In this document: piece after piece, positions 36,878 through 38,555 of the stretch
Layout: each line of letters opens with the position of its first letter
Numbering within the stretch: position 1 is the stretch's first letter
From: Escherichia coli
GTDB lineage: Bacteria; Pseudomonadota; Gammaproteobacteria; Enterobacterales; Enterobacteriaceae
NCBI RefSeq assembly: GCF_003334765.1
Contig: NZ_QOWT01000006.1
Reading direction: 5' to 3' (one strand)
Length of the DNA: 64,000 nt
Translations under genes and position numbers: made by a program
The notes under the pieces: model-generated
The model's input: only the letters and a program-made list of their open reading frames with translations
Database searches by the model: none
What the model was told of the DNA's origin: nothing

Positions 36878-37099
36878 TGACCAAAAACCTCTTTGCGTCA
36901 CATTTTTACAACAATTATTGCATAGAAAATTAATGCTATTGGAATGAAGAGAGTAACGAATGGCTAAACTGGCTAACCCGAATGACGAAAAATTCTGGAA
37001 AACAGCACGCAATTTCGTGAAGTGATTATTTTCGTCCCTAAGGAAACCTCATAGGATGCCTGCGGGTGCCTGAGACTTTCTGTTTTCAGGCTAACCGGG

Positions 37100-37151
37100 A
37101 ATCAGAAAGACGAAGGCCCCGACCGATATTTCTATCAACCGAGGCCAACGA

Positions 37152-37170
<19 letters not shown>
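37100..37170 (-). ncRNA. sokB: expected position of the Sok-type antisense RNA of the hokB locus (approximate)
   Basis: Inferred from hok/sok family architecture (antisense RNA overlapping the mok translation start). No promoter or terminator could be resolved confidently, so the coordinates are approximate. Confidence 0.25.
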
Positions 37171-37359
<189 letters not shown>

Positions 37360-37365
37360 GGGCAA

Positions 37366-37390
37366 GCGCGGGGATTTTCCCCGCGCATTT
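37366..37390 (+). terminator. hairpin gcgcgggg-atttt-ccccgcgc plus ATTT downstream of hokB
   Basis: Perfect 8-bp GC stem seen directly, 7 nt after the hokB stop. Confidence 0.5.
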
Positions 37391-37430
37391 GACTAGCAGA
37401 TTCATTTTCTCATGGCACCCCTTTTACACT

Positions 37431-37604
37431 TCAGTTAGTGCATGTTTTTTTCGATGCACTAATAGAACCATCATTACAGACAAATTTGCCGCCTGCCGTA
37501 CAGTGTGAGATCCCCCCTTTCGAACCAGAACAGGGTTTGCGCCCGGCATCGGCATAAAAGGAAACAAGCGTTCCCATAAACAAAATAAGTGCCAGTTTTT
37601 TCAT
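37431..37604 (-). CDS. ydcA: small secreted protein of unknown function (57 aa)
   Basis: ATG at 37604 with a GGAGG Shine-Dalgarno; encodes MKKLALILFMGTLVSFYADAGRKPCSGSKGG... (signal peptide, Cys-rich). Confidence 0.6.
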   Translation of the reverse strand: MKKLALILFMGTLVSFYADAGRKPCSGSKGGISHCTAGGKFVCNDGSISASKKTCTN

Positions 37605-37774
37605 ATAACCTCCATGGTTTATCGAATCTTATGTTCGATTTGAACGTTATACGCTGGTTTATTTTGATACCGTTGATGAGATCAAAGATCGGGTGAATTG
37701 ATTAAAAATAAGCCAGATGGACGTATGGGCAAGGATTATGGTTTTATTTATCATACAAATAAATATAATAGGCG

Positions 37775-37838
37775 CTTCCGATGTAGACCCGTATTCTTCG
37801 CCTGTACCACGGGTCGGTTTTAGTACAGGCGTTTTCTT
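37775..37838 (+). ncRNA. rydC: RydC-like Hfq-dependent small RNA (about 64 nt)
   Basis: TATAAT -10 at 37764-37769, then cuuccgauguagacccguauucuucgccuguaccacgggucgguuuuaguacaggcguuuucuu with a 9-bp terminator stem (cgcctgtac / gtacaggcg) and U-tract. Lies in the ydcA-cybB intergenic region, where I recall RydC mapping in K-12. Confidence 0.65.
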
Positions 37839-37848
37839 TAAATATCCT

Positions 37849-38379
37849 TCAGGAACGTTTACGCGGCATCATGCGTAGAAGTGTGTTGTCCTTCCAGAAA
37901 TAGTGGTGTGCCAGTGCAGCCGCAGCGTGCAACCCGATGACAAAATATCCCAGATTCGCCAGCGTTTCATGCCACGACTTTAAGCTATCTACCCGTTCGA
38001 AATTGGCCTCTGAAGCGTAAGGCATCGTCAAACCAAACGCAAACCACGGGTTGCCCCGGTTATACATCATCACCAAACCAATCACTGGCAGCGCAATAAA
38101 CAGGAGATAAATCACCAAATGTCCCAAATGCGCCAGTCCCGTCATCATCGGTTTTGGCTTAGGTATAATCGGCGGGGTTGGGTATTTCAGCCTTAACAAA
38201 AGACGAACGACCATCAGCACGAGAATTGAGATGCCACAGGAAACATGAATCATGTTGATGAGTGGCCGATCGCTACGTGGGAAGAAACCACGAAACTCCA
38301 TTGCGCAATACGCTGCGATAACCAGTAAAAAGACCAGCCAGTGAATGCTGATTTGTAACCTTGAATATTTATTTTCCAT
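37849..38379 (-). CDS. cybB: cytochrome b561
   Basis: 176 codons from the internal ATG (MENKYSRLQISIHWLVF...); four TM helices with conserved His ligands. Confidence 0.85.
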   Translation of the reverse strand: MENKYSRLQISIHWLVFLLVIAAYCAMEFRGFFPRSDRPLINMIHVSCGISILVLMVVRLLLRLKYPTPPIIPKPKPMMTGLAHLGHLVIYLLFIALPVIGLVMMYNRGNPWFAFGLTMPYASEANFERVDSLKSWHETLANLGYFVIGLHAAAALAHHYFWKDNTLLRMMPRKRS

Positions 38380-38555
38380 AACATTTCCTGCTTTAACATA
38401 ATTTTCCGTTAACATAACGGGCTTTTCTCAAAATTTCATTAAATATTGTTCACCCGTTTTCAGTACGTTACGTTTCACTGTGAGAATGGAGATTGCCCAT
38501 CCCGCCATCCTGGTCTAAGCCTGGAAAGGATCAATTTTCATCCGAACGTTCCTGA

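Follow-up and report, generated by a model that had tools for sequence, protein, structure and literature searches.

The 65 nucleotides at 37775-37839 on the plus strand of the window, by which we mean the whole 64-kb stretch of Escherichia coli DNA that was analysed, are the gene for RydC, a known Hfq-dependent, trans-acting small RNA of E. coli, and we put the probability of this reading at about 0.97; none of the results speaks against it. An Rfam scan matched the RydC family (RF00505) to 37775-37838 on the plus strand with a score of 92.5 bits, where the gathering score is 48 (E 5.2e-17), and the match covered the model in full (1-64 of 64). When the segment was compared with the curated K-12 chromosome NC_000913.3, all 65 nucleotides were identical to the annotated ncRNA rydC (b4597), which lies at 1491442-1491506 on the strand opposite to cybB and ydcA. 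Read at these coordinates, the K-12 gene has the same first C and ends in UUUUCUUU; the RNA that starts at 37775 in the window reads CUUCCGAUGUAGACCCGUAUUCUUCGCCUGUACCACGGGUCGGUUUUAGUACAGGCGUUUUCUU(U).

The first-pass annotation had proposed the Hfq-dependent RydC from the letters of the ydcA-cybB spacer, whose two flanking genes were both mapped on the minus strand, and had named an Rfam scan as the test of its own proposal. The full-length family match and the identity to b4597 validate that proposal, a 65-nt non-coding gene having been recognized from raw sequence at its exact coordinates. The perfect TATAAT that it had placed at 37764-37769 is there by direct reading, and the five bases AGGCG separate it from 37775, the sixth base, in agreement with an RNA start 6 nt past the box. 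The suggested length of about 64 nt corresponds to what the Rfam model covers, whereas the K-12 annotation gives 65 nt with the end at 37839. What did not hold was the implied freshness of the find, since RydC has reportedly been described since 2003-2005; the feature is already known and is the same as the K-12 copy. A co-crystal structure with Hfq is available (PMC4337610), and the target mechanism and the repressor have been defined (PMC6755755, PMC11340327).

Sequence, strand relation to ydcA and cybB, promoter, pseudoknot and terminator are all the same as for K-12 RydC, with no detectable difference, and the stretch is a K-12-like chromosome. As far as can be judged from sequence, every testable defining feature of RydC appears to be present at 37775-37839, while its expression, Hfq binding and regulatory outcomes are known from the literature on the identical K-12 sequence. 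The 3301 bases around rydC differ from the MG1655 record NZ_CP032667.1 by a single mismatch, at 38521, a position that falls between cybB and gapC. The features of the locus are collected in Table 1.

Table 1. Features of the rydC locus, in positions of the window, with the basis for each assignment
Feature	Position	Strand	Basis
ydcA (57 aa), divergent neighbour	37431-37604	-	ORF list, K-12 annotation
Probable YieP (GntR/FadR-type) operator, palindrome ATTTAT-CAT-ACAAAT (-29 to -15)	37746-37760		Suggested by the motif
-10 element TATAAT of the sigma-70 rydC promoter (-11 to -6)	37764-37769	+	Invariant in 9/9 aligned sequences
RydC small RNA	37775-37839	+	RF00505; 65/65 identity to K-12; 5412/5426 genomes
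Single-stranded 5' seed CUUCCGAUGUA (nt 1-11)	37775-37785	+	Invariant in 9/9 orthologues
Stem 1, 5' arm GACCCGU (nt 12-18)	37786-37792	+	7 standard pairs with 37809-37815
Loop-1 U23/U24, Hfq rim contact	37797-37798	+	Residues present, invariant in alignment
Stem 2 / terminator stem, 5' arm CGCCUGUAC (nt 25-33)	37799-37807	+	9 perfect pairs
Stem 1, 3' arm ACGGGUC (nt 35-41), inside the stem-2 loop	37809-37815	+	Pairing
Loop-2 U46/U47, second Hfq rim contact	37820-37821	+	Residues present
Stem 2, 3' arm GUACAGGCG (nt 49-57)	37823-37831	+	Pairs with 37799-37807
3' U-tail UUUUCUUU, Rho-independent termination and Hfq proximal face	37832-37839	+	Direct reading
cybB (cytochrome b561 / superoxide oxidase), convergent neighbour	37849-38379	-	K-12 annotation mapped

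Searches with the 65-nt sequence found rydC in 5412 of the 5426 complete E. coli genomes, one copy in each, at an identity of at least 99% in 4064, 95-99% in 1346 and 90-95% in 2. Five of the roughly 5400 matches to the rydC region lie on records labelled as plasmid and not as chromosome; the replicons may have been labelled or assembled wrongly, or plasmids may carry large pieces of chromosome. Only the curated NC_000913.3 carries an annotation for the gene. In all 15 of the PGAP RefSeq E. coli records sampled, including re-sequences of MG1655, the feature beneath the match was 'none', which bears out the earlier remark that a view restricted to coding sequences would miss this RNA. Routine PGAP annotation thus leaves rydC unlabelled in thousands of E. 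coli genomes despite its strong Rfam score.

The RNA contains two helices, a 7-bp stem 1 (-10.5 kcal/mol alone) and a 9-bp stem 2 with 6 G-C pairs (-13.8 kcal/mol alone), preceded by 11 unpaired nucleotides at the 5' end. The 15-nt loop of stem 2 holds the 3' arm of stem 1, so that the two helices interleave, and this arrangement is the published RydC pseudoknot. The GC-rich 9-bp stem with a U-tract that had been described for the plus strand is stem 2 followed by the U-tail, and no plus-strand coding sequence abuts this terminator, in line with the view that no protein gene on that strand could use it. An eighth stem-1 pair of the Rfam model (nt 11/42) is A.G in this allele and A-U in 7 of 9 aligned sequences. 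At 37816 (RydC nt 42) the K-12-lineage allele carries G, not the U of most orthologues.

Generic folding and terminator tools dealt poorly with this structure. Nested minimum-free-energy folding recovered only stem 2 and scored no better than shuffled sequences (z = -0.72), an unremarkable result that is expected because the fold is a pseudoknot, yet one that is not positive evidence. Stem 2 was also not called by the standard terminator scan because of its 15-nt loop and because it is one half of a pseudoknot. Relaxing the loop length recovered both helices, with a U-rich stretch after each, and a perfect 9-bp stem with a loop of 10-25 nt and a T-rich tail occurs at only 2 sites on the plus strand of the 64 kb, including rydC. 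The generic terminator scan reported a 6-bp hairpin at 37800-37814 that was rejected as spurious, as it mixes arms of both real helices.

The residues known to contact Hfq are all in place, namely U23/U24, U46/U47 and the U-tail, and binding itself is known from the published complex (PMC4337610). In the crystal structure U23/U24 contact Hfq F39/N13, and the contacts of U46/U47 and the role of the U-tail have likewise been reported (PMC4337610). Changes G37C/G39C in the 3' arm of stem 1 destabilize RydC in vivo (PMC4337610), and the case for the pseudoknot comes mainly from the crystal structure together with this destabilizing mutant.

To place the gene among its relatives, one genome per species was scanned with a fixed-spacing pattern of 18 specified bases, which gave 7 loci from Escherichia and a further 9 hits from unrelated metagenome-assembled genomes. 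Rfam confirmed RydC in the six Escherichia loci whose DNA spans the whole gene, from E. albertii, E. whittamii, two other Escherichia species and two E. coli (one of them locus L010). None of the 9 unrelated hits matched the RydC family (0/9), and their number is about that expected by chance for 18 specified bases. Salmonella, Klebsiella and others were missed by the fixed-spacing scan because the length of loop 1 varies. A gap-tolerant metagenome scan, from which the E. coli allele was excluded, yielded 2 loci that are genuine RydC (83.1 and 73.2 bits), one of them in Salmonella-type synteny with a methyltransferase gene upstream and cybB downstream (cf. PMC11340327); a scan of viral contigs for RydC returned no loci. 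With 2 loci from the metagenome scan and none from the viral one, the covariation test was limited to two clades, Escherichia and Salmonella-like, and its alignment of 9 sequences represents effectively one evolutionary event.

Across these 9 sequences 98.7% of pair cells hold standard pairs, compared with 24-41% when the 3' partners are slid by 1-3 columns. Stem 2 is paired in 100% of its cells; in two of its pairs both partners have changed (U-A to C-G and A-U to G-C), and the Salmonella-like sequences carry one additional pair. Stem 1 is kept in 9/9 orthologues with one A-U to G-U change, and no two-sided change in this stem was found among the 9 aligned sequences. The pair counts agree with the pseudoknot but are thin as independent proof, given two clades and a stem 1 that has no two-sided change.

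Salmonella RydC, the form crystallized with Hfq (PMC4337610), offers a close comparison. Its nucleotides 1-18, comprising the seed and the 5' arm of stem 1, are identical to those in the window; stem 1 and the lower six pairs of stem 2 are shared as well, as are the UU step of each loop and a U-tail, and its gene likewise has the TATAAT, the upstream palindrome and cybB downstream. The differences lie at the top of stem 2, which is CGUC/GACG in the Salmonella type and UAC/GUA here, making a stem of 10 bp as against 9 bp (two pairs swapped, one added), in one extra base of loop 1, and in the 5' neighbour, which is a methyltransferase gene in place of ydcA. A Salmonella RydC rebuilt from the primers in PMC4337610 showed the same stem-2 swap and a loop 1 one base longer. 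On the 3' side, cybB is the conserved neighbour of rydC in most species (PMC11340327); it adjoins rydC in one of the related loci (L020), and in the window its stop codon lies 9 nt from the RydC 3' end.

The seed sequence CUUCCGAUGU at 37775-37784 is invariant in 9/9 aligned sequences, though partly by construction, as these bases were specified in the patterns used for retrieval; independent evidence of their conservation comes from the Rfam consensus. RydC nt 3-11 can pair with positions -107 to -99 of the K-12 cfa leader (UACGUCGGA) in a duplex of 9 bp, one of them G.U, for which RNAduplex gives -12.6 kcal/mol; this duplex overlaps GGAUUAU at -101 to -95, the published E. coli RNase E site. 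This energy was reached by 1.35% of shuffled seeds and by 1.55% of shuffled leaders, a modest p-value of about 0.014. Compensatory mutagenesis (C4G/G101C) supports the RydC-cfa pairing (PMC6755755). In our duplex C4 stands opposite G-100, one of the pair of G's in the RNase E site, compared with the published label G101, and the offset of one base is probably a matter of numbering convention.

In the published model, Hfq grips RydC by the U-tail at its 3' end and by the UU step of each loop, stabilizes it and presents the 5' seed (PMC4337610). The seed then pairs with the 212-nt leader of the sigma-70 cfa isoform at about -107 to -99 and covers the RNase E site GG/AUUAU, which stabilizes the cfa mRNA and counteracts Rho-dependent termination (PMC6755755, PMC11340327). 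Cyclopropane fatty acid synthase rises as a result, membrane lipids are cyclopropanated and acid resistance is helped. RydC, ArrS and CpxQ act only on the cfa isoform with the 212-nt leader (PMC6755755). ArrS also activates cfa from a site that overlaps that of RydC, protecting the same RNase E site, but unlike RydC it is a cis-encoded antisense RNA of gadE; CpxQ, a processed 3'-UTR fragment, differs in repressing cfa from an upstream site (PMC6755755). A RydC-type pseudoknot is not described for ArrS or CpxQ in PMC6755755. Weaker targets that RydC represses are trpE, pheA, csgD and yejABEF (PMC6755755, PMC11340327, PMC4337610).

Other readings of the same DNA have to be set against these results. 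The hairpin and U-tract might simply terminate transcription of neighbouring genes, for example as a bidirectional terminator shared with the convergent cybB, with a TATAAT there by chance and no RNA gene at all; the cybB stop lies just 9 nt from the hairpin tail, and the generic scan did not call a rydC promoter, which has no -35 element. On the minus strand, however, what comes after the hairpin is GAAGAAUACG and not a U-tract, and that strand holds nothing resembling a terminator. Nor would a mere terminator match a covariance model of 64 nt, invariant unpaired seed included, over its full length and at 92.5 bits. Conservation extends to the TATAAT and its upstream block in every aligned sequence, whether Escherichia or Salmonella-like, and an independently transcribed RNA has been demonstrated by northern blotting and with lacZ fusions (PMC11340327). 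We regard this reading as very improbable. Even less credible is a small protein encoded on the plus strand in place of a non-coding RNA. The six-frame list does contain two open reading frames here, 37717-37878 (53 aa) and 37698-37823 (41 aa), but both begin upstream of the -10 element and of the transcript start and are not on the RNA. The sole AUG of the 65-nt RNA (nt 7-9) comes straight before UAG, so that RydC is non-coding, and conservation tracks the helices and not codons, as the loop-1 insertion and the extra stem-2 pair of the Salmonella-like sequences show.

It might further be argued that this genome holds a member of the RydC family that has decayed or become inactive, since nt 11/42, the outermost stem-1 pair of the Rfam model, is an A.G mismatch and one half-site of the putative operator has A where most orthologues have G. 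This allele, however, is exactly the K-12 allele used in the functional work in E. coli (PMC6755755, PMC11340327), and it is the majority allele of the species, 4064 of 5412 genomes being at least 99% identical. With the seed, the 7- and 9-bp helices, the UU steps and the U-tail all intact, decay of the gene has hardly any probability left, and the locus is best read as an ordinary RydC gene.

The RydC gene would be transcribed from its own sigma-70 promoter, with a perfect -10 and without a -35, and the transcript would end at the Rho-independent terminator. The hexamer TATAAT occurs only 7 times on the plus strand of the 64-kb stretch. The best -35 candidate for the rydC promoter at spacings of 16-18 matched 2 of 6 positions, and a TGn extension is absent, in agreement with the published description of a perfect -10 box with no obvious -35 (PMC11340327). 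Because a -35 is missing, the generic promoter scan did not find this promoter. It proposed a sigma-70 promoter TGGGCA-17-TATCAT ending at 37754, which was rejected; its TATCAT lies inside the palindrome described below, and the RNA would have to begin about 14 nt before the annotated 5' end.

Upstream of the -10 element the block at 37742-37769 reads TTTTATTT[A/G]TCATACAAATAA[A/G]TATAAT and is near-invariant from Escherichia to the Salmonella-like sequences, with diverging flanks. It contains an inverted repeat at 37746-37760 that across the alignment reads ATTT[G/A]T-CAT-ACAAAT. The reverse complement of this repeat (ATTTGTATGATAAAT) agrees at 14 of 15 positions with the ChIP-exo motif of YieP (atTTGTaTGAcaAAT; PMC7642389). 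It is the sole site in the 64 kb with at most one mismatch to the motif, compared with a chance expectation of about 0.005, and the agreement rises to 15/15 in 7 of the 9 aligned orthologues. The difference lies at 37750, where the K-12 lineage has A and most orthologues have G, leaving one half-site weaker (14/15 as against 15/15). As controls we examined ykgE and yohJ, the two operons most strongly repressed by YieP. The motif is matched perfectly at 117-131 nt upstream of ykgE, and at 12 of its 15 positions 24-38 nt ahead of yohJ. Upstream of yieP itself no site with up to 3 mismatches was found.

Regulation of rydC by YieP is documented. Repression of rydC by the protein amounts to 20-fold in E. 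coli and to 7.5-fold in Salmonella, and northern blots of E. coli detected RydC only when yieP had been deleted (PMC11340327). A study combining ChIP-exo with RNA-Seq took both rydC and ydcA forward as candidate YieP target operons (PMC7642389); one ChIP-exo study did not include rydC among the YieP targets (PMC11340327). No YieP binding site for rydC is given in PMC11340327, and a base-level site was found neither in the text and supplement of PMC7642389 nor by literature search. From motif and conservation we consider it likely that 37746-37760 is the so far unmapped YieP operator of rydC. Bound there, YieP would occlude the spacer and the -35 region and keep the rydC promoter normally off, the placement being deduced from the motif. 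If this is correct, an operator in the spacer/-35 position would explain why the rydC promoter has no -35. The finding is a small addition to a known gene, but it supplies a concrete and cheaply testable operator position.

The minus strand between the cybB stop and the ydcA start (37604-37851) holds no hairpin followed by a U-tract with loops of up to 20 nt, and its sole run of at least four U lies at 37708-37704. [quoted passage not shown] Such read-through may also cross the rydC promoter and possibly enter ydcA.

Some observations concern the wider neighbourhood. The Rfam family 'sok' (RF01794) matched 37064-37215 on the plus strand with 109.7 bits, which is the strand of the hokB/mokB mRNA leader (mokB, 37152-37319; hokB, 37210-37359; both plus), and the match ends in the AUGAAG of hokB. 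In K-12 the SokB antitoxin RNA is annotated on the opposite strand, at 1492119-1492175, which corresponds to 37106-37162 on the minus strand of the window; the family match therefore apparently marks the hok/sok locus and not the strand of the antisense RNA. The 64-kb stretch and K-12 each have one hok/sok-type locus beside rydC, and two tandem loci about 500 bp apart are present beside rydC in E. coli E69 (L010, 1742-2389) and in Escherichia whittamii (L014, 1135-1783). The gene for the 22-aa small protein YncP (37337-37405, minus strand) overlaps the 3' end of hokB on the opposite strand. Past cybB, from 38568 onward on the plus strand, lies the gapC pseudogene, which is frameshifted and carries an internal stop.
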